From: a virus
DNA: 64,000 nucleotides
Strand: one strand, 5' to 3'
IMG/VR virus record: IMGVR_UViG_3300028800_002449
The notes under the pieces were generated by a model. It made no database searches, was not told the origin of the DNA, and saw only the letters and a list, made by a program, of their open reading frames with translations. Made by a program: the position numbers and the translations under genes. Below are positions 9,680-63,250 of the stretch, piece after piece; the stretch's first letter is position 1; each line of letters begins with the position of its first letter.

Positions 9680-9699
9680 GGTTGTCTCCTCGCCAGCTA

Positions 9700-9750
9700 C
9701 CCTACCGGCACCACTATTTTAGTCAAGATAATTTTACTCAGGATCAACCC
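9700..9750 (-). promoter_or_regulatory. Promoter motif type 1 upstream of rtcB (coding strand AAATTATCTTGACT-N16-TAGGGT)
   Basis: AT-rich island in a GC-rich sequence; plus strand reads TATTTTAGTCAAGATAATTTTA; a -35-like TTGACT and a -10-like TAGGGT. Confidence 0.55.
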
Positions 9751-35962: not shown

Positions 35963-36700
35963 CTAGAAGCTCTCTATGAGCGGCAGATCCCACGGACCCT
36001 TCGACGTATCGACTTGCGATCCCCACTTGGACTTCAAGAGATCCAAGCGTTCGATCCTCGCCCAGTCGGCGCACTTGTCCTGCACCGAATACATGGTGTG
36101 CTCGACTTCAACCGAGAGCCGGCGAGGCTTGAACCCCGCAGCTTTCACCCTCATGGCCCAGTCCCACATCATGCCGATGCCCCCGGGCCCGTACGCAGCA
36201 TCGAGGACGCCTGCGGCCTCGATGCATGCACTGCTGATGAGGAACAACCAGCCCATCCCGATGTCCGAGATCTTCTCGACGGATGGAACGACGTAGCCCA
36301 TCCCGGGCGAGAGCGTGAGGGCATCTACGCCCGCTTGGAGGAAGTTCGGCGGCAACGGGTTTTCCCCACCCATGAGAACGACGAAATCGCCGCCGTGATC
36401 GTGCAGGCCCATGTTCCAGACGCGGCAGAGACCCTGGAGCGTCGGCGAGAACTGGAACGAGAACCTGACGTCTTCGTTCCTCTGCGCGTACTCCCACATC
36501 TCCGGCAGCGGGCAGTCGATGATCACCAGGCACGAGAAGTCTCCATACGTTTGAGCCTTCAAGGAGTCGAGGCAGTCCTTCCAGCGCGGCTCCTGCGTCA
36601 TCGCGACGACGATCGAGACCTTCGCCTCCGGCCTCACGCGGCTCCACAGGGGATGGTCACCCCATCCTTCCTCCGCCCATTCTTCCTTGCGTCTCATCAC
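35963..36700 (-). CDS. GT-A fold glycosyltransferase (GT2-like)
   Basis: VSIVVAMTQEP...LDSLKAQTYGDFSCLVIIDC. Confidence 0.55.
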   Translation of the reverse strand: MMRRKEEWAEEGWGDHPLWSRVRPEAKVSIVVAMTQEPRWKDCLDSLKAQTYGDFSCLVIIDCPLPEMWEYAQRNEDVRFSFQFSPTLQGLCRVWNMGLHDHGGDFVVLMGGENPLPPNFLQAGVDALTLSPGMGYVVPSVEKISDIGMGWLFLISSACIEAAGVLDAAYGPGGIGMMWDWAMRVKAAGFKPRRLSVEVEHTMYSVQDKCADWARIERLDLLKSKWGSQVDTSKGPWDLPLIESF

Positions 36701-37761
36701 GTCTCGTACGGAGGATCGTAGATGTCAGAGCCCGGGTTGAGGTCGTGTCGCCAGTAGGCGACGTCCGAGATCTCCTGCGGGATCTTCTCCGTCTCCGCGA
36801 ACCTCCACGGTCCGAGAGCCGTCGCAAGCCTGTTCAGGTCGTACGGGTTGCCTGCGCGCACCCTCATCGGAATCGTGTTCTTGACGATGTGGTAGTAGTC
36901 GCGACCGTCCTGATACGTCCAACGTCCGGGGATCTTCTCCGCGTAGCTGCCGTAGGGCAGCGTGCGCATGATGAAGCGAGGGTTCATGAGGACCGCCTTC
37001 GGCTCCTCGATGAAGAACGTCTCCCCGCCGGCCATGGCGACGCGCACGCCGAGGTTCGCGTCGAAGGGCCCACGACCCATGTCGAAGCGCTCGTCGATGC
37101 CGTTCAGCTCGTACATGAACTCGCGGTGGAAGCTGTCGTTCGTCAGCGTGATCCAGCCATGCTCCGGCTTCTGGTTCGTCCGATGAAGCTCGGGAAGACC
37201 CGTCTGCCATTGGTTGGGGCCGATCGGCAACGGCAGCCAGGACGCGTCGAACCTGCCTCGCTTGAAGATGCAGATCTCGTCGAGGCTGCCGTCTGTGAAG
37301 ACGTCGTCGACCTCCGTCGAGGTCCTGTCCGTCGCGAGGTTGTTATGGAGGGGCTTCTTCGAGACCACCTCGGGCAGGTCTACGTTCACGTGATCGACCG
37401 TCACGTACCTCCGCGGGTTCCCTTCCAGGGCCGCGACGTGCGTCTCGATCCAGCCTGGCGGCACGTAGCTGAAGTCGTGCAGGATGATCACGTACTTGCC
37501 CCGCGCGAGCGCGATGGCCGTGTTGAAGGCCGCGCAGGCCACGATCCACTTGCCGTTTCTGCGATGCTCGGGCGCGTGGATGGTCGTCACGCCGTACTCG
37601 GCCGCCAACGCGGCCACCTCTGACTTGCGGCGTTCGTAGCGGTTGTCGACGACGATCAGCTCGAAGTCCTTGAACGTCTGATCGCGCATCGCCGCCATGG
37701 TGATGTCCACGCCACCAGGGCGGTACATCATGACGAGCACTGAAACGAGGGGGTTGGACAT
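36697..37761 (-). CDS. GT2-family glycosyltransferase
   Basis: VSVLVMMYR...DQTFKDFELIVVDN. Confidence 0.65.
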   Translation of the reverse strand: MSNPLVSVLVMMYRPGGVDITMAAMRDQTFKDFELIVVDNRYERRKSEVAALAAEYGVTTIHAPEHRRNGKWIVACAAFNTAIALARGKYVIILHDFSYVPPGWIETHVAALEGNPRRYVTVDHVNVDLPEVVSKKPLHNNLATDRTSTEVDDVFTDGSLDEICIFKRGRFDASWLPLPIGPNQWQTGLPELHRTNQKPEHGWITLTNDSFHREFMYELNGIDERFDMGRGPFDANLGVRVAMAGGETFFIEEPKAVLMNPRFIMRTLPYGSYAEKIPGRWTYQDGRDYYHIVKNTIPMRVRAGNPYDLNRLATALGPWRFAETEKIPQEISDVAYWRHDLNPGSDIYDPPYET

Positions 37762-37772
37762 GATCTCTCCTA

Positions 37773-40379
37773 TCAGATGTCGCCGGCCAGCGGCATCCGC
37801 TTGTCAGACTGTCGTGATAGCTCTGCTTCGAAGGCCGTCATCCACTCTCTGGCGACGCTGTCCCAGCCGCACTTGTCGAGGGCATACTCTCGTCCGGCGT
37901 CGGCGTACTTGCCTCGCTCGACGTCGTCCTTGAGCAGCAAGACGACCTGCTTCACGAACTCCCTGAAGTAGGCGCCCGTCGTCGTCGGCGGCTGGAGCAG
38001 CAGACCGTGCTTCACCGTCTCCGTGAGAGCAGCAAGATAGGTGCTCACCGGAACGCATCCAGCGGCCTGGGCTTCAATCGCCGTGATGCAGTGGGTTTCA
38101 GTGAACATCGTCGGGTAGGTCCACACCTTCGATTCGAGGAAGGCATCGGCCAGCACCTTCTGACCGACGCGACCGTGGTACTTGACCAGTCCCTCGGCGA
38201 CCCTCTGGTCGAGGACGGTCTGGATGTCGAGAGCCCTCTGCTTGAAGACGAGGTCGCCGCTCGACTCCGCCATCGAGAGCCACGTCGTGAACCCGTAGTA
38301 GATGTTCAGCTCGACGTCGGGGACCTGCTCCTTGATGGCAGGGAGCATCTCAAGCAGCTTCTCCAGGCCTCGGTCTGGCGAAGACGAGTAGATGATCTTG
38401 TTGCCGCGCTTGACGTTCTGTCCCTTGAACCTCGACACGTCGATCCCGTTCCTCGTCACGACGATCGTCGACGGATGGAGCTGCGGATAGCAGGCGAGGA
38501 AGAAGTTCTTGTGCCATCCCGACAGGCAGAAGATCTTGTCGTAGCGCATGAGCGCGTTGTTGAGGTTCGCCGAGGTCGCTCCGACGTTGACGTCGTGGAC
38601 CCACAGGAAGCTCACCTTCGCCGGCCAGTTCAGAAGGGACGCCTCTGCCTGTCGTGAGACGACGAGGACGTCGCACTCGAACTCCGAAACCTTCTGCGTG
38701 GCGACGTGGTACGGCACGTACCTCACGCCGTCGAAGATCTCCTCCCGAGGGCAGTCCGAAACGACGGTCACCTGGTTGCCGGCTCGGACCAGCTCGCGCG
38801 CCATGCAGACGGCGGCAGTCTCCGACCCACCGATGCCCCCGTCGTCGATCGAGCGCGGCGTCCACTTCTCCCAGGCGAGGCCGGTCCAGATGACGATCTT
38901 GAGACGGTTGCCGACCGCCTGGAACAGCGGCTCCGCGTTGCCCGCGGCGATCTGCTCCTTCGTGATCGCCCTAGCCTCGTCGATCTTGACGTCGTTCATC
39001 GAGCCCTTCGGCAGACCGTCGAGGAAAGTCAACGCGTCTTCGTAGTGCCCGAGCTGCATGTACTGCTTCCAGAAGTGGATCGCGAACGACGTCATCACGT
39101 CGATCGGAAGGGCCACAGGCGGGGACCTCAAATCCTCGTCCCGCGAGAACGTCACGGCCAGCTCGCTCGGCGGCTCCACCTTCGGTGCCAACGCCTTTTC
39201 AGCCACTTCCTTGTTCCCCTTCAGGTGCGGGTCATCGGCGTTCCACTTGAGCCCCTCGACGCAAGCGTCGAGAGCTTCCTTGTGGCGACGAAGCTCGATG
39301 AGGGCTGCCGAATAATAGACGTACGGTCGGTAGTAGCGATCGAGAGGGTCGTGCATGAGCATCGACTTCTGCTTCTCGGACTTCGCCCTGACTTCGAGAC
39401 CCTTCTCCGACCACTCGGCGCACTTGCCGTAGTCGCGCTTGAAGTAGGCGACGCGGGCAGCGCCGAAGTAGCCCTCCGGCCGAAAGTCGCTCTCGACGAC
39501 GGCCTGCGCATACTCGGAGAAGGCGAGGTCGTACTTGCCCTGACCCTCGAACATCAGCCCGACCGTGACGTGTGCCACCGAGCGCTCCTCGTCCCACCCG
39601 GAGCGCGTGCAATACTTCTGGTAGGCGGCGATGGACTTCTCGGGCCAGACGAACCTCGTCTCCATTCCGAGGTAGAAAAGCATCCTGGCGTCGACGGTGT
39701 CCCAGTCCTTGTCCTTGAAGTAGTGCAGCAGCACCTTCATGTTGCGAGCCGAGATCTCCGGCTTGATCTTGTACTCGCTCCGCTGGTGCTTGACGGAGAC
39801 CTGCTCGTAGAATCGCGCCGATCCGATCGGGCCGACCACCTCGTGGATCGGCTGGAGCCAGCTGCCGACGCCGCGTCGAAGGATGCGCTCGCGCGTGAGC
39901 CTGCACGTGACCTTGCCCGCGTGGTCGTGCTCGTAGTCGTAGTTCAGGAGCGCCGTGTCGACGGCGTCCTTCTTCATGTCGTCGAGGACGTCCTGGATCG
40001 ACTCGCCGCCGACGAGGAGGTCATCCGAGTCGATCCACATGACGTAGTCGCTCGTGACCTCCTTCCAGCCGTGTTGCCTCGCGCCTCCGAAGTCGGCCAG
40101 CATCCACTTCCCTGAAAAGGGGGGCGGCATCTCGACGTCCGTCCAAGACTCCTTCACGTCGAGGATGAAGGCGTCTGGATGGGTGTCCTTGTTGAAGTCG
40201 AGGATCCTGGCCTTCGGGCAGATCTCGCGGATGCGGTCCTTCGTCGCGTCGGTCGAGCCGGTGTCGACGACGATCACCTCGTCGAAGAACGGCGCGGCGG
40301 ACTCAAGGCACCTGCCGATGTACCTCTCGACGTTCCTCACGATCATCGCGAGCGCGATGGAAGTTCTGGTCGTCGGCAC
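37773..40379 (-). CDS. Multidomain glycosyltransferase (N-terminal GT2, TPR-like middle, C-terminal GT4), 868 aa
   Basis: IALAMIVRNVERYIGRCLES...VIVVDTGSTD...WIDSDD at the N-terminus. C-terminal ETHCITAIEAQAAGCVPV is GT4-like. GTG start. Confidence 0.7.
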   Translation of the reverse strand: MPTTRTSIALAMIVRNVERYIGRCLESAAPFFDEVIVVDTGSTDATKDRIREICPKARILDFNKDTHPDAFILDVKESWTDVEMPPPFSGKWMLADFGGARQHGWKEVTSDYVMWIDSDDLLVGGESIQDVLDDMKKDAVDTALLNYDYEHDHAGKVTCRLTRERILRRGVGSWLQPIHEVVGPIGSARFYEQVSVKHQRSEYKIKPEISARNMKVLLHYFKDKDWDTVDARMLFYLGMETRFVWPEKSIAAYQKYCTRSGWDEERSVAHVTVGLMFEGQGKYDLAFSEYAQAVVESDFRPEGYFGAARVAYFKRDYGKCAEWSEKGLEVRAKSEKQKSMLMHDPLDRYYRPYVYYSAALIELRRHKEALDACVEGLKWNADDPHLKGNKEVAEKALAPKVEPPSELAVTFSRDEDLRSPPVALPIDVMTSFAIHFWKQYMQLGHYEDALTFLDGLPKGSMNDVKIDEARAITKEQIAAGNAEPLFQAVGNRLKIVIWTGLAWEKWTPRSIDDGGIGGSETAAVCMARELVRAGNQVTVVSDCPREEIFDGVRYVPYHVATQKVSEFECDVLVVSRQAEASLLNWPAKVSFLWVHDVNVGATSANLNNALMRYDKIFCLSGWHKNFFLACYPQLHPSTIVVTRNGIDVSRFKGQNVKRGNKIIYSSSPDRGLEKLLEMLPAIKEQVPDVELNIYYGFTTWLSMAESSGDLVFKQRALDIQTVLDQRVAEGLVKYHGRVGQKVLADAFLESKVWTYPTMFTETHCITAIEAQAAGCVPVSTYLAALTETVKHGLLLQPPTTTGAYFREFVKQVVLLLKDDVERGKYADAGREYALDKCGWDSVAREWMTAFEAELSRQSDKRMPLAGDI

Positions 40380-40394
40380 GAAGACGACAGTGAC

Positions 40395-40432
40395 AGAGAT
40401 GGACTTTCAATCGCAAGATTTTGGGAGAGGGA
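40395..40432 (-). promoter_or_regulatory. Conserved element type 2 (coding strand CAAAATCTTGCGATTG...GTCGTCTTC) immediately upstream of the large GT gene
   Basis: One of three near-identical roughly 36-nt elements (40395, 41765, 43405). Plus strand reads TTTCAATCGCAAGATTTTGGGAG. Confidence 0.5.
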
Positions 40433-40441
40433 GCGCGTCGC

Positions 40442-40696
40442 CTATTCCTGCGAGTCGTCGATCGGAGCGACCTTCTTTTCGCCGTGCGACACCAGCTTCA
40501 AAAGCTGGACGATGGGCAGACCTGCGTGCTTCTCACACACGTGGAAGGGCGTCTTTCCGAACATGATCGAGATCAAGATCCCATCGATCCCGATCGCCGG
40601 CTCGCTGCAAACGTGCCGTCCGAAGAGCTTCCGCCCAGCCTCGTCCGGGACGTCGCAGACGGTCTTCAAGATGATCATGTTCTTCGCACGCCCCAT
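40442..40696 (-). CDS. Hypothetical protein, 84 aa
   Basis: ORF. Confidence 0.35.
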   Translation of the reverse strand: MGRAKNMIILKTVCDVPDEAGRKLFGRHVCSEPAIGIDGILISIMFGKTPFHVCEKHAGLPIVQLLKLVSHGEKKVAPIDDSQE

Positions 40697-40708
40697 CCCA
40701 GGGCGCCG

Positions 40709-41749
40709 TCAGAACGCGGAGAGCTTGCCGGTCTTGCGATGGGCCACGGTGACCTCGCTCGCCTGACGCTGCTTCTCCCACCAGGCGCGATTCTCCTGGT
40801 ACCAGCGGATCGTCCGCGGCAGGCCCCCGAACAGCGTCGTCTTCGGCTTCCATCCGAGCAGCTCCCACGACTTGGTCGTCGACGAGATGTGCCTGTCGAC
40901 CTGTCCGGGGCGAGCCTCGACGTGCTCGATGAGGTGACGAGGCTTCCCGAGGAAGTCGACGACGGCCTCGGCGATGTCGTTGATCGAGGTGTCGGTGCCC
41001 GTGCCGAGGTTGATCGTCTGGCCGCAGAGGCGCTTGTCGCCGACGACCCCTCCGTTGAGGGCCGAGAGGACGGCGTCGCAGGTGTCCTCGACGTAGACCC
41101 AGTCGCGCGTCATGAGACCGTTCCCGTGGACGCGCAGCGGCTCGTCGCAGATGGCCTGCGTGATGAACCGAGGAACGACCTTCTCCAGGTGCTGCTTCGG
41201 ACCGTAGTTGTTGAACGGCCGGATGAGCACGAGCGGGATGTCGTGGCAGATCCTGTAGGCGTAGACGAGCCTGTCGGCGCCGGCCTTCGCCGCCGCGTAC
41301 GGCGTGCAGGGGTTGAGCGGATGGTCCTCTGTCATAGGCGCCGACTCGGCCGTCCCGTAGACCTCCGACGTCGAGATGTGGACGAACTTCTCGATCCGGG
41401 ACCGGTTCTTGGCGACGGCGTTCGCGATCGTGTGCGTGCCCATGACGTCGGTCTCGAAGAAGACCGTGTCGTCGGCGATCGAGCGCGTCACGTGAGACTC
41501 CGCCGCGAAGTGGACGACTGCGTCGACCTTCGAGACGAGCGCGTTCACGACCTCCGGATCGCGGATGTTCCCTCTGACGAGGGAGAACCTCTTCGACTTC
41601 GCGATGCGCTCCGGGATGTTCTCCGGGTTCGACGCGTACGTGAAGACGTCGAGCACCACGATCTCGTCATCCGGGTGTCGATCGAAGACCTTCTCGACGA
41701 AGTTGCTGCCGATGAAGCCGGCACCGCCCGTGACCAGGATCTTCCTCAT
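40709..41749 (-). CDS. rmlB: dTDP-glucose 4,6-dehydratase (RmlB-type SDR)
   Basis: ILVTGGAGFIGSNF, HFAAESHVTRS, YAAAKAGAD (YxxxK). Confidence 0.85.
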   Translation of the reverse strand: MRKILVTGGAGFIGSNFVEKVFDRHPDDEIVVLDVFTYASNPENIPERIAKSKRFSLVRGNIRDPEVVNALVSKVDAVVHFAAESHVTRSIADDTVFFETDVMGTHTIANAVAKNRSRIEKFVHISTSEVYGTAESAPMTEDHPLNPCTPYAAAKAGADRLVYAYRICHDIPLVLIRPFNNYGPKQHLEKVVPRFITQAICDEPLRVHGNGLMTRDWVYVEDTCDAVLSALNGGVVGDKRLCGQTINLGTGTDTSINDIAEAVVDFLGKPRHLIEHVEARPGQVDRHISSTTKSWELLGWKPKTTLFGGLPRTIRWYQENRAWWEKQRQASEVTVAHRKTGKLSAF

Positions 41750-41764
41750 GGAAGACGAGGATGA

Positions 41765-41800
41765 CGAGATTGAGATCCAATCACAAGATTTTGAAAGCCT
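41765..41800 (-). promoter_or_regulatory. Conserved element type 2 (CAAAATCTTGTGATTGGATCTCAATCTCGTCATCCT) ending 8 nt before the rmlB ATG
   Basis: Near-identical to the element at 43405. Contains a TTGTGA -35-like box, a CATCCT -10-like box 17 nt downstream, and a GATTG-N5-CAATC inverted repeat. Confidence 0.5.
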
Positions 41801-42209
41801 AGGGCGCGCCGCCCGTCGCCCAGGCCTCGTCGTCCGGAACGTTCAGAAGCTCCGGCGTCTGGTGCCAGAGGGAAGGATGCGCATGAGTCCCATCGACGGC
41901 GTCGCCGTCGTTGAGCACGTTGATCGACGGTGAGACCATCCAGTTGCTCGTGCCGGGAGCATGCTCGAAGGTGCTCGCCTGAGGCTTCGAGAGGCCCCAG
42001 GTCCGGCCTCCCGCTCCGTTTTCCGTGTAGGCGCCGCCCGGGTTGACGGGGACGCAGAAGACTTCCGGCTGACCATCGCTGTCGCGAAGGACGTTGAACC
42101 AGAGCTGCCACCATCTGGCGCTTCCCGAGCCTGAGGCTCGATGGACGGTGCATTCATTGACCGCCAGATCCTCGATGAGCGCGTGAGAACGATACGTGAG
42201 CGCGCTCAT
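41799..42209 (-). CDS. Hypothetical protein, about 136 aa
   Basis: Internal Met MSALTYRSHAL of ORF 41799..42293(-). Confidence 0.35.
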   Translation of the reverse strand: MSALTYRSHALIEDLAVNECTVHRASGSGSARWWQLWFNVLRDSDGQPEVFCVPVNPGGAYTENGAGGRTWGLSKPQASTFEHAPGTSNWMVSPSINVLNDGDAVDGTHAHPSLWHQTPELLNVPDDEAWATGGAP

Positions 42210-42787
42210 CTGGAGACCGCCCGATCGAACCAGTGCTGGAAGTGCGACGCGTCGTTGGTGTTCGCCCCATGGACGAAGTACGTGTAGAGCCAAGGCTCAC
42301 AAAGCTGCACCACGGACATCCCTCCGAGGTCGACCTCGTTCCTCGGGGTCGGCGGGAACCTTCCGGGTTTCGCCAGGAGCGAAAGTCGCTTGGCGAGCAA
42401 CGTCGGCTCCCACTGGCGAGGCTCGGAGACGACTGCGAGGCCCCGCTCCGGCCAGTGCAGGAGGACCCTCTCCAGCAGGCATGCGTCGGCCTGCGGAACG
42501 GTCGCGAGGACCTCGACCTGCCGCTTGAGACGGTCGGGATGATGGACGTCGTCGTCGTCCCAGAGGCAGACGAGATCTCCCTTCGCGACGCCGAGACCGA
42601 TGCCACGCATCTGGTTGAGGGTCGTGCCGACCTTCGCCTTGTAGAAGGGCCTCTTCAAGGCGGACACGTCGTCGAGCGTGACGATGATGAGTTCGCGGTC
42701 CTTGTAGGACTGGGCGTCGAAGGCGGCGATGGCACGCTCGGCGAGGGCCTGTCTCTTGGCCTGGGTGATCATGAGGCAGGAGATCAT
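42206..42787 (-). CDS. Small GT-A-like glycosyltransferase, 193 aa
   Basis: LIIVTLDD...LWDDDDVHHPDRL (DxD). Confidence 0.5.
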   Translation of the reverse strand: MISCLMITQAKRQALAERAIAAFDAQSYKDRELIIVTLDDVSALKRPFYKAKVGTTLNQMRGIGLGVAKGDLVCLWDDDDVHHPDRLKRQVEVLATVPQADACLLERVLLHWPERGLAVVSEPRQWEPTLLAKRLSLLAKPGRFPPTPRNEVDLGGMSVVQLCEPWLYTYFVHGANTNDASHFQHWFDRAVSR

Positions 42788-42821
42788 AGTGCCCTTGGTG
42801 CCTTTCGGTTCGACGACGCGA

Positions 42822-43424
42822 TCATGTGGTCTTCAGAACGATTTTGCTTGGGTCGATCTTACTTGGCTCGATCTTCTTCGGGAAGGCGATCTTGGTCAAG
42901 GTCGCGACCATGTCTTGGCAGGCTTCCTTGTAGTTCGTGAAGGCATACATCTGATAGTGCTCATTCCGCGAGGTCAGATCAGGCCTCGGCGTATAACCCC
43001 ATGTCGCTGTAAAGTTACATGAGTAGGAGTCGTTGTGCGGAGCGTTTACCTCACGCCACTCCACGTTCAAGTAGTAGTACCAGAACTCGGAAACGGGCGG
43101 CCACTTGTGGGTCAGATCTCCATACGCACGAGCGGCTGACCAGTGTGGAGTGATGATATTCGTCTGTCCGCCCATCTTGAGCACGCGATACAGCTCGTTC
43201 ACGAAGTGAACGCGTTCGACGCTGTCGAAGTGTTCGACGACATGGCTCGCGTTGACCGCTTCGACAGAGTCATTTTCCCAGGGCCACGTCTTCGTCAGGT
43301 CCACGACCTGATCCACGCCGGGAAACGGACGGCTGTCGACGCCGATCCAGTCGGCAGCGATCTTGTTCTTCCCGCATCCGAGGTCGAGCTTCAAGGGAGG
43401 AAGGATGACGTGATTGAAAATCAA
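42822..43424 (-). CDS. Class I SAM-dependent methyltransferase
   Basis: LDLGCGKNK motif I, SVEAVNASHVVEHF, KMGGQ. The listed TTG start lies inside the type 2 element, so the true start may be the downstream TTG (MKLDLGCG). Confidence 0.65.
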   Translation of the reverse strand: MIFNHVILPPLKLDLGCGKNKIAADWIGVDSRPFPGVDQVVDLTKTWPWENDSVEAVNASHVVEHFDSVERVHFVNELYRVLKMGGQTNIITPHWSAARAYGDLTHKWPPVSEFWYYYLNVEWREVNAPHNDSYSCNFTATWGYTPRPDLTSRNEHYQMYAFTNYKEACQDMVATLTKIAFPKKIEPSKIDPSKIVLKTT

Positions 43425-43440
43425 TCACAAGATTTTGGAA
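43405..43440 (-). promoter_or_regulatory. Conserved element type 2 (CAAAATCTTGTGATTGATTTTCAATCACGTCATCCT) at the methyltransferase start
   Basis: Third copy; TGATTGA-N3-TCAATCA inverted repeat. Confidence 0.5.
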
Positions 43441-43574
43441 GAAGGCGACAGGTCACAGGTCTAGAAGCGGTCTGCGGCCCCATCAGAAATTTTATAAACC
43501 CCACCCGAAAGTTCTGCTGTCCGAAGGACGCGTCTGGACTATCGCCTGTCGCCTTCTGCCCTTCCGCGCTCTCT

Positions 43575-44306
43575 TCACCACATCATGTCGGGCGGCCCGA
43601 AGTCGCCCTTGAGATCGTAGTGGCCGACCTTGACCGAGCAGTCGATCGCACAGCGAAAGCCATGCTTGCGGGCGTCCATCCAGAAGTACAGATCTTGGGT
43701 CGCTATCCCGTCGTTCCGCTGAGTCTTGAACCAAGGCTTGCGCAATCGCGCGTCCTTGAACATCGACATCCGCCAGAGGTTGAAGCCCATCCCTGTACCA
43801 CAGCATTCGATGAGACCACCCTGAGGATCAGGCAGCTGCGGCCTGAAGTTCAAGACGGGGTCTTTCGGATCGCCCCAAATCTGAGGTACGCCGCCTGGTC
43901 CCTTCGTGAAGTAGAGGCCGCCGATGCACGACAGCTCAGGGTGGGCCTCCATCTCCTCAAGAAGCTTCAACACGCCGTTCGGTGGAGGCGCGTTGTCGTG
44001 CTCGATCGTGAGGATGTACTCCCACTGCGACAGATTTGGCTCCATCAGGATGTTCTCGACCGCCGCCGAGTATGCCTCGCCCACCTCCATGCCCTGAGCC
44101 AAGATCCTCACGACGCCGTTGTTTGGAGCGAACGCCAGGTTCCAGTGCGACAGCGCCACCTTCGCGGGGATAGTGTCGGCCGCAGGGATGATGACGACGA
44201 TCCGCTGCTGCTTCCAAGCGCCCGTGCGCATCATCCGCGTCGTCGTTCCTTCCAGGTCGCCGTTGTGCGTTCCTGAGAGGTCCTGCATGATCAGTTGAGG
44301 CTTCAC
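43575..44306 (-). CDS. GT-A fold glycosyltransferase, about 240 aa
   Basis: IVVIIPAAD...; DxD-like EHD; alternative ATG start at 44288. Confidence 0.55.
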   Translation of the reverse strand: MKPQLIMQDLSGTHNGDLEGTTTRMMRTGAWKQQRIVVIIPAADTIPAKVALSHWNLAFAPNNGVVRILAQGMEVGEAYSAAVENILMEPNLSQWEYILTIEHDNAPPPNGVLKLLEEMEAHPELSCIGGLYFTKGPGGVPQIWGDPKDPVLNFRPQLPDPQGGLIECCGTGMGFNLWRMSMFKDARLRKPWFKTQRNDGIATQDLYFWMDARKHGFRCAIDCSVKVGHYDLKGDFGPPDMMW

Positions 44307-44345
44307 ACGCGCATACTATCTTACTCAAGCGACCAAGGAAACTTT
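44300..44345 (-). promoter_or_regulatory. Degenerate variant of promoter motif 1 (plus strand TATCTTACTCAAGCGACC)
   Basis: Shares ATCTTAC..CAAG with the sites at 15041 and 25441, but the -35/-10 spacing does not fit well. Confidence 0.25.
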
Positions 44346-44348
44346 ACT

Positions 44349-45272
44349 TCACCCACGCACCCACGCGATCGGAACAGCATCGCTAACGAGGATGTATGCG
44401 CCAGCGCTCGTGTTGCTCCCCAGACTATCCGTGACGATGCATGTGATGACTGAGAGGTTGTCAGCCTGACCCAAGACGCCAGTCGTATAAGTGCTGCTGT
44501 CCGTTCCAACGTTGATTCCATTATTCTGCCATTGGTAGCTTACTGTCCCTGAAGAAGCTGTCGTCGTGATGGAGAAGGTCGCCGTCGAGCCGCTGAAGAC
44601 GCTCTGCGTGACTGGCTCTACGCTCACCAACGGACCTGCGGGTCCGACGAGCATCGAGACAACGGCGTAGTCGGCTAATCCGTCATTAAAAGTAGCCTGA
44701 CCCTGTACACCACCCGTGTTCGCAAAGGGCGCGTTCGACACGTATATAGTGGTGTTCGCTCCACCCGTGCTGTTGCTATCAAGAATTGCGAGAGGAGGAA
44801 CGTAAGTGAAGCCAGCAGTATCTTCAGAAGTAAAAACCATGAACTGCATATCGTTCTGAACTGTCGCAGCACCGGCATTGCATCTGAGGACCTTACCGTT
44901 AAACGTTCCATTGTCCATAGATCCTGGCACGCCATCGACGACAGAAACAGTATTCGCTCCTGATACCTCAATTAGGTCGACTGCATTGGTAGAACTGTTG
45001 GTTGTAATCGTAACCGTGAACGTGCCCGCGCTCACATCGACGACTGTCGTCCAAAATGACACCGATCCAGACTCTGAACCGGCAAGTGCTACCTGTCGGG
45101 TGTAAGTCTGAGATCCTTGGTTGTCCGTCACCGATTGCGGCGTGAGGTTGCCATCTGTCGTGATGGCTATGATCAACACATTTCCTACCGTCGGCAACGT
45201 GCTGAAGGTGGCGGTAAAAGGGTTGTTGCCCCCTCCGAGGGTTATTCCATTCTGGACGACTGCAATGGCCAT
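44349..45272 (-). CDS. Fibre-associated protein with C-terminal Ig-like (I-set/Big) domain, about 307 aa
   Basis: Internal Met [10 protein letters not shown] of ORF 44349..45551(-), starting exactly where collagen gene 1 ends. C-terminal TATFSITTTASSGTVSYQWQNNG...DNLSVITCIVTDSLGSNTSAGAYILV has an Ig-like pattern. Confidence 0.5.
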   Translation of the reverse strand: MAIAVVQNGITLGGGNNPFTATFSTLPTVGNVLIIAITTDGNLTPQSVTDNQGSQTYTRQVALAGSESGSVSFWTTVVDVSAGTFTVTITTNSSTNAVDLIEVSGANTVSVVDGVPGSMDNGTFNGKVLRCNAGAATVQNDMQFMVFTSEDTAGFTYVPPLAILDSNSTGGANTTIYVSNAPFANTGGVQGQATFNDGLADYAVVSMLVGPAGPLVSVEPVTQSVFSGSTATFSITTTASSGTVSYQWQNNGINVGTDSSTYTTGVLGQADNLSVITCIVTDSLGSNTSAGAYILVSDAVPIAWVRG

Positions 45273-48200
45273 CAGATAGAGCTGTTCACGAAGTTGAAGT
45301 ATTGCCTCAGAGTCGAGGCATAGCTGACGATGTCTGCAAACCTGACCGTCGACGGCATCGTTGCTGAAGAGACGGTCCAAACTCCGGCTCCAGGATAGAC
45401 CTGTGAGTTCGTGACGTTCGTCGTCTGACCCCAGATGCGCATGCTGTTCGTATTGTTCACTGCGGGCAACGCCTGCGCGAACATGCTGTTGAAGCTCCAA
45501 ACACCTCCAGGGGCCGGCACGGTGCCGGCTGTCGTGCTGCTCGTCGACCATGCCTGCGCGAACCAGTAGTTACCTGGACGAACAGTCGTGTTGAATCCGA
45601 TTGGGACCACGATTGAACCGGAAAGAACGTTCCTCAAGCTCGATTGAAACGCTGTCGCCAAGGTCGAACTCAAAGCTGATGCTGCGGTGTTGAGAGCAGT
45701 CGAGGCACCGAGTGATGTCGTCGTGTAGTTACCACTCGCGTCGATTGAAACGACATAAGACATGGTCGCTCCGACAGACACGCTCAAATTCGTCGAGGCT
45801 GCGCCTGACATCGAAACGGACACGGAGGAGGAGATCGCAACCGAGAAGGAGTTCGACCACACTGACTCAAGGCGCGTGCTGTTGGTTCCGACGCCGAGGC
45901 TGTAAAGGCCGACAGTGTTCCCGAATATGAAGCTGACGCTGGCCGAGCCCGTCGAGTTCGTCTGGAAGTTAGAGCTTGACGCTCTCAAGAGAGACGAGGC
46001 TGCGCTCTGAAAGCTCAAGATCCTGTTGACGCGACCGCCGCTCAGATTCACGGGCAGATTGAAGGGCTCGAAGTACCAGCTTCCGATGCCAGGAGGGTAG
46101 TTCGTCGTCGACGTATAGATCGGATACGGTTCGAAGTTCGTGTACGAAGGTCCGCTGACTGAGATCGTGCTGACATTCGTCGAGATGATGATCCCACCGA
46201 CGCCGACCAGGCTTGACGTGGCTGGCACGCTCGCCGTGACAGTGCTGCCGCTCATTCCGAACGTAATGCCGTTGCTGTTCGAGAAGACGACGGTGCCAGA
46301 CGATTGTGAAGATCCAGCTGCTGAGATCGCCACGCCGCCGCCACCGCCTCCACCAGCTGGTCCGGTTGCTCCTTGAGCACCCGTCGCGCCCTGAGGTCCC
46401 GTCACGCCTGAACCTTGAGGCCCCGTCGGACCCGTCTCGCCGGCTGTTCCCGTCGCTCCTTGCGACCCGGTAGGCCCCGTCGCGCCGGCTGTTCCCGTCG
46501 CTCCTTGCGGTCCCGTCGGCCCCGTCGCGCCGGCTGTTCCCGTCGCTCCTTGCGGCCCCGTCGGACCCGTCGCGCCGGCTGTTCCGGTCGCTCCTTGCGG
46601 TCCCGTCGGACCCGTCGCGCCGACGTTGCCCGTCGCTCCTTGAGCGCCTGACGCGCCCTGAGGTCCCGTCGCGCCTTGGGGACCGGTTGCACCCTGTGGT
46701 CCAGTAGGTCCCGTTGAGCCCTGCGGTCCGATCGAACCCGTCGCGCCTTGCGGTCCCGTCGGGCCCGTCGCGCCTTGCGGTCCCGTCGGGCCCGTCGCGC
46801 CCTGCGTTCCTTGAGCGCCGGTCGGTCCCGTCGAGCCCGCGCTCCCCGTCGGCCCCTGAACGCCGGTCGCGCCCTGAGGCCCCGTCGGGCCCGTCGCACC
46901 TTGGGTTCCCTGAGGGCCTGTCGGTCCCGTCGAGCCCGCGCTTCCCGTCGGGCCCTGAACGCCTGTCGCGCCTTGCGGTCCCGTCGGGCCCGTCGCGCCC
47001 TGCGTTCCCTGAGGGCCGGTCGGTCCCGTAGAGCCCGCGCTTCCCGTCTGGCCTTGAGCGCCGGTCGCGCCCTGCGGCCCCGTCGGCCCGGTCGCACCTT
47101 GGGTTCCCTGAGGGCCTGTCGGTCCCGTGGAGCCCTGCGGTCCGATCGAGCCCGTCGCGCCCTGAGGACCTGTCGCACCTGTCGTGTCGTTGCCGGTCGC
47201 GCCACGAGCGCCAGTGGAGCCTTGAGGACCCGTCGGCCCGGTCGCGCCCTGCGTTCCTTGAGGGCCGGTCGGTCCCGTGGAGCCCGCGCTTCCCGTCGGG
47301 CCCTGAGCGCCGGTCGCGCCCTGCGGTCCCGTCGGGCCGGTCGCGCCCTGCGTTCCCTGCGGTCCCGTCGGACCCGTCGCGCCCTGCGTTCCCTGAGGTC
47401 CGGTCGGTCCGGTCGAACCAGCGCTTCCCGTCGGGCCCTGAGCGCCGGTCGCACCTTGCGGTCCCGTCGGGCCCGTCGCGCCCTGCGTTCCCTGAGGTCC
47501 GGTCGGTCCGGTCGAACCGGCGCTTCCCGTCGGGCCCTGAGCGCCGGTCGCACCTTGCGGTCCCGTCGGGCCCGTCGCGCCCTGTGTTCCCTGAGGTCCG
47601 GTCGGTCCCGTGGAGCCCTGCGGTCCGATTGAGCCCGTCGCGCCCTGAGGGCCCGTTGCGCCTGTCGTGTCGTTGCCGGTCGCGCCACGCGCGCCAGTGG
47701 AGCCTTGCGGCCCCGTCGGCCCGGTCGCGCCCTGAGTTCCTTGAGGGCCGGTCGGTCCCGTCGAGCCTGCGCTCCCCGTCGGGCCCTGAGCGCCTGTCGC
47801 ACCTTGAGGTCCGGTCGGTCCCGTCGAGCCAACGCTTCCCGTCGGGCCCTGAGCGCCAGTCGCACCTTGAGGTCCCGTCGGTCCCGTCGCGCCCTGCGGC
47901 CCCGTCGGCCCAGTCGCGCCCTGCGTTCCTTGAGGGCCGGTTGGTCCCGTGGAGCCCGTGCTTCCCGTCGGGCCCTGAACGCCCGTCGCGCCCTGAGGCC
48001 CCGTCGGCCCGGTCGCGCCTTGGGTTCCCTGAGGGCCGGTCGGTCCCGTGGAGCCCTGCGGTCCGATCGAGCCCGTCGCACCCTGAGGGCCCGTCGCGCC
48101 CGTCGTGTCGTTGCCGGTCGCTCCACGTGCGCCAGTGCTGCCTTGCGGCCCCGTCGGCCCGGTCGCGCCCTGAGTTCCTTGGGGGCCGGTCGGTCCGGTC

Positions 48201-50794
48201 GCACCCGCGTTGCCCGTCGGGCCCTGGGCGCCCGTTGCTCCGACCGCGCCGGTTGCGCCCTGCGGCCCCGTCGACCCGGTCCCGCCCTGCGTTCCCTGAG
48301 GACCGGTCGGCCCAGTCGAGCCAGCGCTTCCCGTCGGACCCTGCGTGCCCGTCGCTCCGGCCGCGCCGGTTGCGCCTTGCGGCCCCGTAGGCCCGGTCCC
48401 CCCCTGCGTTCCCTGAGGGCCTGTCGGCCCGGTCGAGCCCGCGCTGCCCGTGGCTCCAGCAGCGCCGGTCGTGCCTTGCGGCCCCGTCGGCCCGGTCGCA
48501 CCCTGCGTTCCTTGAGGGCCGGTCGGTCCCGTCGCGCCCGCGTTGCCCGTCGGGCCCTGAGTGCCCGTTGCTCCGGCCGCCCCGGTCGTGCCCTGCGGTC
48601 CCGTCGGTCCGGTCGCGCCTTGCGTTCCCTGAGGACCGGTCGGTCCGGTCGAGCCGGCGCTGCCCGTGGCTCCAGCAGCTCCAGTCGTGCCTTGCGGTCC
48701 TGTCGGCCCGGTCGCGCCTTGTGTTCCCTGAGGGCCGGTCGGCCCGGTTGCGCCAGCGCTGCCCGTGACTCCAGCAGCGCCGGTCGTGCCTTGCGGACCC
48801 GTCGATCCGGTCGCGCCTTGTGTTCCCTGAGGGCCGGTCGGTCCCGTTGAACCTGCGCTCCCCGTCGGTCCCTGTGTGCCGGTCGCTCCGGCTACGCCGG
48901 TCGTGCCTTGTGGTCCCGTCGGCCCGGTTGCGCCCTGCGTTCCCTGAGGGCCGGTCGGTCCCGTCGAGCCTGCGCTCCCCGTCGGACCCTGCGTGCCGGT
49001 CGCTCCGGCCGCGCCGGTCGTGCCCTGAGGACCTGTCGGTCCAGTAGAGCCAGGGCTTCCCGTCGGACCCTGCACGCCAGTCGCGCCCTGCGGTCCCGTC
49101 GGTCCCGTGGCACCTTGATTTCCCTGAGGACCCGTCGGACCAGTCGAACCGACTGCGCCCGTTGATCCCTGAGCACCTGTTGAGCCGGCGACGCCAGTCG
49201 CGCCGATCGCACCCGTCGCGCCCTGAGTTCCCTGACTTCCTTGCGGACCTGTCGGTCCCGTCGTACCAGAGCCCTGCGGACCCGTGGGCCCGGTTACGCC
49301 TTGGGGACCCTGTGGTCCAGTCGGACCGGTCGTGCCAGAGCCCTGCGGTCCCGTGGGGCCCGTTACACCTTGAGGTCCCTGCGGTCCCGTCGGTCCTGTC
49401 GTACCAGAGCCCTGTGGACCCGTGGGGCCGGTTACGCCTTGAGGTCCTTGTTGTCCCTGAGGTCCCGTTGGCCCCGTCGTGCCAGAGCCCTGCGGTCCCG
49501 TCGGTCCCGTGGCTCCTTGAGGACCTTGCGCGCCTGTCGGGCCAGTTGCACCAGCTCCTTGCGGGCCCGTCGGTCCAGTTGCGCCCTGAGGGCCCTGCGA
49601 GCCCGTAGGACCAGTGCTTCCTGCGCCCGTTGCACCCTGAGGCCCCGTCGGACCCGTCGCACCCTGAGCGCCAGTAGGGCCCGTGGGGCCCGTCATCCCT
49701 ATGCCGGTAGCACCTTGTGGTCCGGTGGCACCCGTTCCGCCTTGAGGACCAGTCGGTCCGGTCGCGCCCTGAGCGCCCGGCGAGCCGGCGCCCCCCTGCG
49801 GTCCGGTCGGCCCCGTGCTTCCCTGTGGACCGGTCGCGCCCTGTGCGCCCGTCGGTCCCGTCGAACCTTGAGGACCTGGCGAGCCGTTGCCGCCCTGAGG
49901 ACCGGTCGGCCCCGTGGGACCGGTCGCGCCCTGAGGACCCGCACTTCCCTGAGGACCGGTTGGACCCGTGCCGCCAATGCTGCCCGTCGGACCTTGCGCG
50001 CCTGTCGGTCCCGTTGAACCCTGAGGGCCGGGAGATCCTGCTCCGCCTTGGGGACCGGTCGGACCGGTCGCGCCAGTCGGACCCTCGGGGCCGGTCGCGC
50101 CTTGCGGACCGACAGAACCTGTCGAACCTTGCGAGCCCGTTGCGCCGCGTGAGCCCGTTGGACCCGTAGTGCCCTGCGCGCCCGGAGATCCTGCGTTGCC
50201 CTGCGGCCCCGTCGGGCCGGTCGCGCCCTGCGGTCCAGTCGGGCCCGTAGAGCCCTGCGGCCCCGGAGATCCTTGTCCCTGAGGACCCGTCGCACCTTGC
50301 GGGCCCGTCGGGCCAGTCGGTCCAGGACCCGTGCCTGCCGGACCCGTCGCCCCCTGCGGTCCCGTCGGCCCCGTCGCGCCCGGAGGTCCCTGAGGACCCG
50401 TCGCGCCCGTGCCGCTGCCACCACCTCCGCAGTTGCAATTTTCTTCGGCGGCGACGCTGACGACGACGTCTTCGAGGATGATGCCGACGGGCAGCAGGCG
50501 CAGGTAACGAACTGTCGCGTTCTGGACGAAGATCGGAGAGAGGTTGCGCACGTTGTGCGCGACGTTCTCGGAGAGCCTGTCGATGTTGAACTGGCAGAGA
50601 GTGCTCCACGACGCGTTGTCGAGGCTGCCTTCCACGCAGATGTCGCCGCCCCTGAAGAGACCCTTCGAGAGGACGAAGGTCAGATCTCTATCGAGCCCCG
50701 ATGGCGGGACGAGCGTGACCAAGTCGATGCTGGGCTGAGCGCCAACAGCACGAGCTGGGAGGATCGGAAATGTGAGGAAATTGTTAGCGCCCAT
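45272..50794 (-). CDS. Giant collagen-like fibre protein 1 (1840 aa)
   Basis: About 125-aa N-terminal domain, then roughly 1265 residues of Gly-X-Y ([10 protein letters not shown]...), then about 440-aa Ser/Thr/Asn-rich C-terminal domain. Confidence 0.9.
46600..50440 (-). repeat. Gly-X-Y collagen triplet repeat region of fibre protein 1 (coding tandem repeats)
   Basis: Higher-order 13-triplet units ([33 protein letters not shown]) recur more than 20 times. Three copies of a longer block carry GNDTTG interruptions. Confidence 0.85.
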
Positions 50795-52061: not shown

Positions 52062-54580
52062 CTACGGGTTCGCGATCGTCGTGACGGTTCCCGAAGGACC
52101 CTTCACCTTCAGACCGCCTGCTTCACCCCAAAGGAAATAACCATTGAGTGGGTTCCCCGTCGAGGGAGTGCTGCTCGCGATGTTGATGAACATGACGCCA
52201 GAACCGCCCTGGAAGGGTGTATTCGTTCCTGCGAACAGGACGAAGTTGCCGTGTCCGATTGATGACTGACCGAACGCGCCAGCCTGGTTTTGCGCATCAG
52301 CCTGGAACGAGACGCCTGCACCTGCCTTCGAAGCCAACAGAGTCGCGAGACCACCCGTGCCCGTGCCGCCGATGTCCGTGCTCGTGAGCGTCAACCCCCC
52401 CGAAGATCCATCGGCAGCGGTCACGTTATCGACGAAGATCGTGCTCCAGACAGTGGAAGTACCCCCGAGGTTGTACGTCTTGTTCGCGGTCGGCGTGATC
52501 GTACCGGTGACCGTGATCGATGCCGAGCCGAGCGTGATCGCCGTGTTGAAAGAGGCGTTGTTCGAGAGCTGGAGAGAGCTTCCACCGATGCCTTGGACGT
52601 TCTCGACGTAGACGGTTCCCCAACCCGACGAAGACGAGCCGAGGTTGTATGCGAAGCTTGAGGTCGGCACGACGCTACCGATCACGGTGATCGATGCGCT
52701 GCCGAGCGTGATCTCGGTGTTGCCCGAGGCATTGTTGGCCAGCTGGAGTGAGCTGCCGCCGATGCCCTGGATGTTCTCAGTGTAGATGATGCTCCACCCT
52801 GACGACGCTGAGCCCAGTGTGTATGTGAAGTTCGAGGCCGGAACTATGTTACCCGTCTGCGCGACGTTGCCCTGGATCTGAATGTTCGACCCGAGGATGA
52901 TCGCCGTCGCCGCACCACCGTTGTTGAACAGAGACAGCGTGCCACTCGGGATGCCCTCGATCGACGTAGTCATGAGGACTGTGTCTAAACGCGTGGTACC
53001 AGACTGCACCCACAACGCGTAGCCGTTCGTAATCGACAGGCTTCCACCCGTGATTGGTGCTCCCTTGATCGTGAACGTCGCAGCGTTCGTGATCGCCACG
53101 ACCGAGACGTCCGTGTACGTCGGCTGCTCGATCGTGAAGAGGTTGTATCCCGTCGCGGTCGTGATGTTCGTCGTGCCCGTGACGGTCTGCGTGCCACCCT
53201 CGAAGTGGAACGCGTTGAGGGTCGCGCCGGCCGCGCTCGCGATGGTCGTGTTCACGGTGAAGTCGTCGGCGCTCGCGACGGTGGCGGTCGTGGTGCTCGT
53301 GAGCTTGGTGAGCGTGAGCGTCAAGGCGCCAGAGATCTGCATTCCACCGTCGAGACGGGTCAGTCCCTGCTGAACCCAGAGCGCATAGGAACCCATGATG
53401 GTCAGGTTGCCGGTGTTGATCGGAGCGCCATGGATGGCCACCGTCGCTGCGGTCGTGATCGTCATCAGCGACGTGTCCGTGTACGTGGGTCGCTCGACCG
53501 TGAAGTAGTTGACGCCGGTCGGAGTCGTGATGCCTGTCGTTCCGGTGAACGTGATCGTCGACGAATCGATGTGGAACGCGTCGAGGACCGTCCCAGAGGC
53601 GCTCGCGATCGATCCTTGCGCGATGAAGTCGAACGCATCCTGCGGCGTCGTCGTGATGATCGTGACGCTCGACGAGTTCTGGATGCTGACGCCACCGTTG
53701 GTTCCGTTGAGAGAGAAGACGGTCGTGCCGCCCGTGCCGTCGATCAACGTCGTGCTGTTCAACGTCAGGAACTGTCCGGTCGCCACGCCGATGTTGAGAG
53801 ACGTCAGCGCGCCCTGCTGCCAGCCGATCATGTTGTTGGCGTAGACGTTGTCGTTGACGCCGATGCTGGCAGTGCCACCGCTGTTGCGGTTGTTCAGGTA
53901 GAGCGCGAGGCCGGTGCCGAAGCCGCCCGCGGCGCCTTGAAGCACGCCGTTGATCTCCATCGTCGTCGCGACGATCATCGTCAGCGCGCTCGCCGCCGTG
54001 TAAGTCGGCGAGCGAACGGTGATCATGCTGATCGAACCGATGTTGGACGAGCCCGTGATCGTGACCGTGACCGGGTCCCACAGGTACGAGTCGAGGATGC
54101 CCGTCGCGCTCGCGACGTTCGGTGGCGTGATGCCCCACTCGAACACGGTGCCGTTCGCAGCCGTCAGCACCGAGTTCGTCGACGAGAAGGACGTGTACCC
54201 GATGTTCTTCCACTGGAACGTGCCGGCGGTGCCGTTCGGCGTCCAGATGCTGTAGATCGTGTTGTTGAGGTTCAGCTCCATGGCGTTGTTGTCCGCCGTG
54301 CCGAAGAAGAACGTGCCGCCCGTCTTGTAGAGCGTCTGAGCGCCAGCGCCCGTCAGAGCAATCGCCGAGCTGCCCGATCCGATCTGACCGATCGTCAGCG
54401 GAGCGCCAGCGCCCACGGCGTCAGCTCCGATCAGCAGCCTGTGGTTGACGGGGTCCCATCGGAAGAGGTTGTCCTGGCCGACCTTCGTCGCCGTCGCCGC
54501 GAAGAGGACATCGGGAGCGATGAGCTGCGCACCGCTCGGGCCCGTGGCTGCGAGACCGCCCTGCGGGCCGGTCGGTCCCG
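52062..54580 (-). repeat. Internal tandem peptide repeats in the C-terminal domain of fibre protein 2
   Basis: Two repeats of about 100 aa ([28 protein letters not shown]... and [28 protein letters not shown]...). Three repeats of about 55 aa ([34 protein letters not shown]...). Confidence 0.7.
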
Positions 54581-63186: not shown

Positions 63187-63204
63187 GGGTTGTCTCCTCT
63201 AGAG

Positions 63205-63250
63205 CGGACGATGCTAAGTCTATCGCAAATCTTGGTCAAGATAAAAACGA
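63205..63250 (-). promoter_or_regulatory. Promoter motif type 1 (TTTTTATCTTGACCAAGAT-N13-TAGCAT)
   Basis: Plus strand reads AAATCTTGGTCAAGATAAAAACG; palindrome ATCTTG-GT-CAAGAT. Confidence 0.6.

Follow-up and report, generated by a model that had tools for sequence, protein, structure and literature searches.

A short conserved element stands directly ahead of three sugar-pathway genes in a 64,000-nucleotide stretch of viral DNA (IMG/VR record IMGVR_UViG_3300028800_002449; hereafter, the window). We refer to it as the type 2 element to tell it apart from the type 1 promoters of the same genome. The window belongs to a metagenomic contig of 260,244 bp (ENA ERZ27245399, k141_2938905); its G+C content is 61%, nearly all of its genes lie on the minus strand, and they form a set typical for phages of very large size. 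The element proves to be real and conserved, and it is specific to sugar genes. Judging from its sequence and layout, we lean slightly toward the view that it is a weak, regulated promoter that would give rise to leaderless or near-leaderless transcripts.

The core of the element is an exact 16-mer, CAAAATCTTGYGATTG, that occurs three times on the minus strand of the window (40408-40423, 41778-41793, and 43422-43437); in shuffled sequence, 0.24 matches are expected even when three mismatches are allowed. The three copies precede a large glycosyltransferase (GT) gene, an RmlB-like gene, and a methyltransferase gene, and the Pfam assignments (GT2 + TPR + GT4/GT1, GDP_Man_Dehyd/Epimerase, and Methyltransf_11, respectively) confirmed the identities given in the original prediction. 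From the first T of the TTG box to the start codon, the distance is 37 nt (GTG 40379), 37 nt (ATG 41749), and 36 nt (TTG 43394), and the element ends 7-8 nt before each of these codons, as had been claimed. The same prediction described three near-identical copies with the consensus CAAAATCTTG(T/C)GATTG-N4-TCAATC-N-CGTCATCCT and with CATCCT 17 nt past the TTG box. This description fits the RmlB and methyltransferase copies only. The GT copy reads CAAAATCTTGCGATTGAAAGTCCATCTCTGTCACTGTCGTCTTC-GTG; it diverges after GATTG, has CCATC in place of CAATC, and lacks CATCCT, its best hexamer being CACTGT at 18 nt. A TGT precedes CACTGT, giving an extended -10-like sequence. Separately, the 3' end of the methyltransferase gene, at its junction with a GT2 gene (window 42824-42860, minus strand), contains GCAAAATCGTTCTGA, which may be a degraded copy of the 5' half of the element.

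Further copies, for which a search of the contig and its relatives had been proposed, were found in both. The large GT has many homologs; the three closest, at 72%, 72%, and 58% identity, lie on contigs L126, L127, and L128, each of which carries a syntenic sugar cluster with the element ahead of both the RmlB-like and the GT genes. A fourth copy on the source contig, 100 kb away (locus L369), precedes a paralogous GT operon and reads CAAAATCTTGCGA-18-TATCCT-8-ATG. In a fifth genome, L375 (RmlB 67% identical), the copy reads CAAAACCTTGCGATTGAGATTCAATCTGTG-CAGCAT-8 nt-ATG, with 37 nt between TTG and the start. The total is 11 copies in five genomes: four on the window contig and seven orthologous ones in the four related contigs. 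A sugar-pathway gene lies downstream of every one of these strong copies, including all four in the ~104 kb of the source genome that were examined. The element was absent from ~240 loci with more distant GT homologs recovered by profile searches of metagenome, viral, and genome collections, and a 34-nt pattern had no match in IMG/VR. More than 120 single matches to the 16-mer in IMG/VR were consistent with chance, none of them having the extended features, and were set aside. Searches for the locus in IMG/VR with single proteins found no close relatives, nor did the sugar cluster match any INPHARED phage by megablast.

The element is better conserved than its surroundings. Among the window, L126, and L127, the stretch from -8 to +29 is 84-100% identical, compared with 62-82% at third codon positions of the adjacent genes, and the upstream flanks (~25% identity) do not align. 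For the RmlB copy and its counterpart in L126, the element is 100% identical and the third codon positions of the adjacent gene 72%. Because identity exceeds that of both third codon positions and flanks, the whole element, including the spacer, is under purifying selection. The 11 specified positions of AAAATCTTG.G are invariant in the 10 copies of the four closest genomes, and L375 differs by one T-to-C change; the form common to all 11 copies is AAAA(T/C)CTTGYG. Nor is the element part of a longer coding sequence in homologs, the outcome that would have counted against the original prediction: the reading frame across it is not conserved, and the overlap with the 3' end of an upstream open reading frame (ORF) is confined to its first 5-17 nt, in L127, L128, and L375. 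The gene call in L126 extends the RmlB-like gene in frame into the element; this extension was discarded since the window, L127, and L128 do not keep the frame, and an antisense mini-ORF (plus strand, ATG ACG...) was rejected for want of conservation between copies. A variant of the element stands before a small GT2 gene in L126 (5940-5981) and L127 (~7440-7469). It consists of (AAAA)TCTGGCG followed by an inverted repeat that reaches the ATG (GGTGAT..ATCACC in L126 and GGCGATTGA..TCAATACGCC in L127), with a T-A to C-G change in the outer stem from one genome to the other.

Coordinates of the type 2 copies, the genes that follow them, the type 1 sites, and other features of the genome
Feature	Record	Coordinates	Strand	Remarks
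Type 2 copy before GT2-TPR-GT4 gene	window	40380..40423	(-)	orthologous copies in L126, L127, L128
GT copy: CAAAATC	window	40423-40417	(-)	
GT copy: TTGCGA	window	40416-40411	(-)	-35-like
GT copy: GATTG...CCATC	window	40412-40408 (GATTG)	(-)	imperfect inverted repeat
GT copy: CACTGT	window	40392-40387	(-)	-10-like; 18-nt spacer
GT copy: CGTCTTC	window	40386-40380	(-)	pyrimidine-rich
Type 2 copy before RmlB-like gene	window	41750..41793	(-)	100% identity over -8..+29 to L126 ortholog
RmlB copy: CAAAATC	window	41793-41787	(-)	
RmlB copy: TTGTGA	window	41786-41781	(-)	
RmlB copy: GATTG / CAATC	window	41782-41778 / 41772-41768	(-)	inverted repeat
RmlB copy: CATCCT	window	41763-41758	(-)	-10-like; 17-nt spacer; preceded by CGT
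RmlB copy: CGTCTTCC	window	41757-41750	(-)	
Type 2 copy before methyltransferase gene	window	43395..43437	(-)	
Methyltransferase copy: CAAAATC	window	43437-43431	(-)	
Methyltransferase copy: TTGTGA	window	43430-43425	(-)	
Methyltransferase copy: GTGATTGA / TCAATCAC	window	43428-43421 / 43417-43410	(-)	perfect inverted repeat
Methyltransferase copy: CATCCT	window	43407-43402	(-)	-10-like
Methyltransferase copy: TCCTCCC	window	43401-43395	(-)	
GT2-TPR-GT4 glycosyltransferase gene	window	37773..40379	(-)	Pfam; start GTG 40379
RmlB-like dTDP-glucose 4,6-dehydratase gene	window	40709..41749	(-)	ATG 41749 fixed by N-terminal MRKILVTGGAGFIGS Rossmann motif
Class I S-adenosylmethionine (SAM) methyltransferase gene	window	42822..43394	(-)	Pfam Methyltransf_11; proposed start TTG 43394
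Type 1 sites (first base of ATCTTG)	window	63878, 63242, 25456, 15053, 9729	(-)	
Type 1 site	L369	19647		
Type 1 site	L128	14723		
Type 1 sites	L371	~17560; ~149	(-) for ~149	
Type 1 site	L375	~1255		
Protein with RNA polymerase alpha C-terminal domain	window	7619-8236	(-)	PF03118, E 1.7e-11, 44 bits vs cutoff 23.8
ABC-transporter ATPase and permease	window	20305-22163	(-)	
Peptidyl-tRNA hydrolase PTH2	window	983-1366	(-)	
DnaJ-domain protein	window	4771-5241	(-)	
RtcB RNA ligase	window	8417-9679	(-)	

The layout of the element resembles that of a promoter. In order, it comprises an A-tract, a -35-like TTGYGA, a spacer of 17-18 nt, a hexamer of the form nAnnnT, 6-8 mostly pyrimidine bases, and the start codon. 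The TTG is invariant in all 11 copies, and the boxes TTGYGA and TTGCGC match TTGACA at three to four of six positions. From TTG to the start codon, the distance is 35-38 nt in every copy and exactly 37 nt in seven of them. An nAnnnT hexamer lies at a spacing of 17 or 18 nt in 10 of 11 copies, for which the base rate is 0.07-0.12 per site, and it takes seven different sequences (CATCCT, CACTGT, TACTCT, CATGGT, GAAGAT, TATCCT, and CAGCAT); the exception is the GT copy of L127 (TATCTG/ATCTGT). This -10-like hexamer begins at -13 or -14 from the start codon and mostly has C as its first base. CGN precedes CATCCT in the RmlB-type copies, and TGN precedes the hexamer in three of the four GT copies. 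A pyrimidine occupies -1 of the start codon in 10 of 11 copies, and the start codon is ATG or GTG in as many, the TTG of the window methyltransferase being the only one of its kind. For comparison, the bacterial signature of leaderless genes is TANNNT ~12 nt upstream of the start codon (PMC3160421), and in Actinobacteria GTG is an accepted start for such genes (PMC3160421 and PMC3898074). In Mycobacterium tuberculosis, a transcription start within 5 nt of the codon counts as leaderless, GTG is as frequent in such genes as in leadered ones, start sites prefer a purine at +1 and C at -1 (Y(-1)R(+1)), and the -10 often follows CGN or TGN (PMC3898074).

No Shine-Dalgarno sequence precedes the three sugar genes (the preceding bases are CGTCTTC, CGTCTTCC, and TCCTCCC); GAGGAG/AGGAGG is present in neighbouring genes and after type 1 promoters. 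The source's gene caller placed the start of the GT at ATG 40346 rather than at GTG 40379. The GTG and the residues V-x-T-x-R-x-S-I-x-L-A-M-I-V-R-N that it opens are kept with synonymous changes in L126, L127, and L128, and distant homologs start 6-9 residues ahead of [CA]MIV[RK]. Some homologs of this protein (P0005 and P0033) exceed it by ~400 amino acids (aa) and contain intein/Hint and LAGLIDADG-type domains (PF14528, PF14890, and PF13403). TTG 43394 is the least certain of the three starts. It yields MKLDLGCG..., which places the SAM-binding motif right at the N terminus, and the source's gene caller agrees; a search of PDB sequences with this N terminus gave no hits.

The sequences establish the motif and its geometry, show that it is conserved, and tie it to sugar genes; from this we infer polymerase recognition, a transcription start point, leaderless translation, and regulator binding as follows. 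The element would be a clade-specific promoter-operator module placed directly ahead of sugar-pathway genes in an uncultivated jumbo phage. A host-type (sigma-70 family) RNA polymerase would read TTGYGA as the -35, aided by the upstream AAAA(T/C)C tract, and the weak nAnnnT hexamer 17-18 nt downstream as the -10. Initiation would then fall on the first base (A or G) of the start codon or no more than ~2 nt from it. The RmlB-like, GT, and methyltransferase messages would thus have no leader, or almost none, and their translation would do without a Shine-Dalgarno sequence. The repeat GATTGA-N3-TCAATC would serve as an operator for a dimeric regulator, giving the sugar genes their own timing; since the repeat sits between -35 and -10, the regulator is more likely to be a repressor. 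The weak hexamers, the better-conserved -35 side, and the inverted repeat in the spacer together suggest factor-controlled promoters. Another arrangement of -10, 7 nt, and ATG is found in the phage clade (L371 17560), and this site and the type 1 promoters make recognition by a host-type polymerase and leaderless expression both plausible.

Several observations weigh against such a promoter. First, a strict sigma-70 scan of 36000-46000 (at least 4/6 matches per hexamer and 9/12 overall) calls none of the three sites. Second, the hexamers are poor, CATCCT matching TATAAT at three of six positions. Third, they lie 13-14 nt before the start codon against a modal 12, so a canonical start would leave a leader of 1-2 nt, and the TTG start of one copy is unusual in leaderless mRNA. 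Fourth, conservation is far stronger on the -35 side than on the -10 side, and housekeeping promoters typically show the opposite, which points to a factor-binding site or an alternative sigma factor. Fifth, two relatives further removed have the core 11 nt (L371) or 23 nt (L372) ahead of sugar-gene start codons, distances at which it is impossible as a -35 box for those codons; drift, a function as operator only, or a role in RNA could account for them. Finally, the sugar gene at L369 starts 73 nt after TTG, and only a 12-codon mini-ORF occupies the leaderless position. The proposal of promoters with leaderless transcripts agrees with the layout, the missing Shine-Dalgarno sequences, the pyrimidine at -1, and the conservation; the strict scan does not call the sites.

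The mini-ORF at L369 (MEKPSHFDSVRS; 8821-8859 in a record of about 15.3 kb) is opened by the ATG of the element, and its TGA stop overlaps the TTG start of the L369 GT4 gene, an arrangement suggestive of translational coupling. Its place in L371 is taken by a Cys-rich ORF of 95 aa, with an ATGA overlap. Beside this second GT operon of the phage lies a HepT-like/nucleotidyltransferase (MNT) toxin-antitoxin pair (L369 12629-13433, minus strand).

The inverted repeat raises the question of whether the element acts as RNA. GATTGA-N3-TCAATC is present in most copies, inside the spacer and centred ~25 nt upstream of the start codon. In the repeat, 81% of cells are paired, compared with 31-49% in slid controls, and in the RmlB copy of L128 the entire stem is swapped for GCCCG/CGGGC at the same position. 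RNA folding, one of the checks proposed at the outset, gave a divided answer: most copies can fold, the z-scores are modest (-0.1 to -2.8), and the hairpin is missing in 3 of 10 copies (the window GT copy, the L127 GT copy, and L369). An obligatory RNA hairpin is rejected because of these absences. Also rejected were a known RNA family (Rfam 15 gave no match at E up to 1 for 40000-44000 on either strand) and an intrinsic terminator, since none is called at or before the elements and no T runs follow the repeat.

An RNA-level element within a polycistronic transcript, whether it serves in processing, binds a translational regulator of the phage, or permits internal initiation as a standby or enhancer site, is in our judgement unlikely, and of the alternatives it survives best. 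Its appeal is that an AU-rich box and a hairpin lie ~18 nt upstream of a start codon that lacks a Shine-Dalgarno sequence, in a genome of 61% G+C. Only short gaps separate the genes (49 nt ahead of the RmlB-like one), and the copies are not preceded by intrinsic terminators, so read-through RNA would contain the element. The replaced stem in L128 and the other start-codon distances in L371 and L372 also fit an RNA role. Nearly all two-sided stem changes, however, come from a single sequence, and the lost hairpins, the modest z-scores, and the negative Rfam search argue against it. Moreover, it leaves unexplained the recurrence of nAnnnT in seven sequences at -35/-10 spacing, as well as the box-to-start distance of 35-38 nt that holds even where the intervening sequence has been replaced.

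It is more doubtful that the element is an operator or activator site only, or a promoter for a phage sigma factor or polymerase. Here a phage protein would read AAAATCTTGYG(ATTG) and thereby define a sugar regulon, the likeness to -35 and -10 being secondary. The invariance of AAAATCTTG.G beside a variable -10 side, the weak -10 boxes, and the restriction to sugar genes are what one would expect of such a reader; the phage encodes an alpha-C-terminal-domain (alpha-CTD)-like protein, and its nearest relatives are huge phages. Against this, the ~104 kb examined yielded no candidate sigma factor or regulator, and a host polymerase is the simplest account of the TTG-17/18-nAnnnT layout and of the type 1 parallel. 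This alternative overlaps with the promoter-operator module more than it excludes it.

We think it improbable that the copies are mainly recombination cassettes for swapping modules of the sugar cluster, like the PeSL stem-loop elements of T4-like phages, with expression control secondary or inherited. Between conserved copies, gene content does vary among relatives: the RmlB-like gene is followed by an 84-aa ORF in the window, by nothing in L126, and by a LamG-domain gene in L127 and L128, and among these genomes only the window has the methyltransferase. The spacer of the methyltransferase copy is closer to that of the L127 RmlB copy than to that of the window RmlB copy. In L375, a 25-nt duplicate of the 5' half of the element lies ~460 nt upstream of the full copy; the gcgCAAAACCTTGCGATTGAGATTC pair (~1571-1596 and 2027-2071) brackets a 78-aa ORF and looks like direct repeats left by cassette insertion. 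The comparison rests on five genomes, and recombination without a function in expression leaves both the above-synonymous conservation and the fixed start distance unexplained. It is compatible with a promoter-operator module rather than an alternative to it. A phage protein, perhaps the alpha-CTD-like protein or a dimeric regulator, might read AAAATCTTGYG together with GATTGA/TCAATC and switch on leaderless sugar-gene transcripts as a temporal class of their own, with the cassette doubling as a recombination handle for sugar-gene modules between phages. The element would then belong to a control circuit that this lineage of huge phages encodes and dedicates to glycosylating virions or host surfaces, although we regard this combination as speculative and unlikely. 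Two further candidates were rejected: a CRP/FNR-type site (TGTGA and TTGAT...ATCAA-like strings) because the half-sites are 11 and 3 nt apart where the consensus sequences have 6 and 4, and an ECF-sigma-like AAC...CGT because the distance is ~20 nt rather than 16-17.

Type 1 promoters are built differently from the type 2 element. They consist of a T-tract (TTTT) and ATCTTGAC[CT]/ATCTTGCGT, followed at 16-18 nt by a TAGGAT-like -10. A palindrome, (T)ATCTTG-NN-CAAGAT(A), overlaps the -35 box (TTGAC[CT]/TTGCGT) and is kept in distant relatives (L128, L371, and L375); because it persists in relatives too remote to retain the type 2 element, it may be an operator in its own right. After three type 1 promoters (window 9679-9700 and 63186-63210, both minus strand, and L369 ~19680-19700), there is a nearly identical leader, GAGGAGACAACC(C/A)(AC)ATG, so conservation takes in the ribosome-binding region as well as the promoter. 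The two types had been proposed to share the core AAATCTTG and to form one recognition system with two output classes. On the gene strand, AAATCTTG is limited to the three type 2 copies, and the core common to both types is instead ATCTTG, which is close to the usual extended -35 of sigma-70-type promoters (tcTTGaca). Since ATCTTG is largely an ordinary -35, "one recognition system" is true only loosely, in that both types look sigma-70-like. That type 2 forms a sugar-gene output class is well supported.

Other genes also fit a huge phage. Genes of large-phage type in the window include RtcB, ParB, thymidylate synthase, nucleotidyltransferase, PTH2, DnaJ, ABC-transporter parts, and two giant collagen-like genes. 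The nearest database phages, and the only ones with a related large protein, are uncultured (LR756500-LR756503, 462-735 kb, ~37% protein identity). The genes for translation and host physiology (ABC transporter, PTH2, DnaJ, RtcB, and a release-factor-like gene with PCRF/RF-1 at L373 13124-13768) form a set typical of huge phages. The two giant genes (45272-50794 and 52062-56411, both minus strand) encode 1840 and 1449 aa of Gly-X-Y collagen-like repeats with a 9-nt period and 73-74% G+C, and they adjoin the sugar cluster on its upstream side; their products may be fibre proteins that the adjoining cluster glycosylates. A 920-aa protein of the relative L128 (14812-15237) has major vault protein shoulder and Vault_3 domains. 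The alpha-CTD-like protein of the window has a homolog at L370 5694-6251 (minus strand). A free-standing homolog of this kind might bind A/T tracts that resemble UP elements, or it might compete with the alpha subunit of the host, which makes it a candidate trans-acting factor for the A/T tracts upstream of -35 boxes; its sole tie to the type 2 element is that such tracts lie upstream of both promoter classes.

The sequence motif is new, and the kind of element is familiar. We know of no account of how large sugar-modification clusters are regulated in huge uncultivated phages, and a clade-specific element that marks exactly the sugar genes offers a concrete handle on gene regulation in such a phage. 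It predicts transcription start points and leaderless translation in the host, it delimits a small regulon whose members could be sought in new assemblies, and it points to sites of module exchange in a variable cluster. Should a phage factor prove to be its reader, this would be among the first regulatory circuits for such phages; should the element be merely a weak host-type promoter, it would be an ordinary though well-documented case.

One of the closest known systems is that of the sigma-70/SigA-type leaderless promoters of Actinobacteria and Deinococcus-Thermus (PMC3160421, PMC3898074, and PMC4007540). In both, a hexamer with A at the second and T at the sixth position stands a short way ahead of an ATG or GTG, the Shine-Dalgarno sequence is missing, a pyrimidine occupies -1, and several of the hexamers follow CGN or TGN. 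The hexamer of the element, in contrast, usually starts with C rather than T and lies 1-2 nt further from the start codon; the element also has an inverted repeat in its spacer and one TTG start. M. tuberculosis promoters have no -35 consensus (PMC3898074), whereas AAAATCTTGYG is strongly conserved.

The PeSL and PmSL of T4-like phages combine a stem-loop, an early or middle promoter, and a Shine-Dalgarno sequence, and are repeated in hyperplastic regions (PMC2839356 and PMC4122927); PeSLs are defined by their association with differences in gene content (PMC4122927). Like them, the element is a repeated intergenic regulatory cassette (~45 nt) in a variable gene cluster, with an AT-rich tract, a -35/-10-like pair, and an inverted repeat, and its copies coincide with differences in gene content between the window, L126, L127, and L128. 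Because its repeat lies inside the promoter spacer rather than in an upstream terminator, and because its 3' end has a start codon but no Shine-Dalgarno sequence, it is not a PeSL by definition. It is also sparse (four copies in ~104 kb), serves one functional class of genes, and belongs to an unrelated phage lineage.

In T4 middle promoters, a MotA box replaces the -35 (PMC2988021). There as here, a conserved box in the -35 region with a looser -10 marks a temporal or functional class of genes; the box of the element, by contrast, holds an ordinary TTG -35 core, and its transcripts would be leaderless. No MotA/AsiA-like factor was identified. Another parallel is lambda PRM-cI, where a weak promoter under the control of an operator-bound protein gives a leaderless mRNA that starts at the A of AUG. 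That arrangement concerns a single gene and a different sequence, whereas here several genes of one pathway share the cassette.

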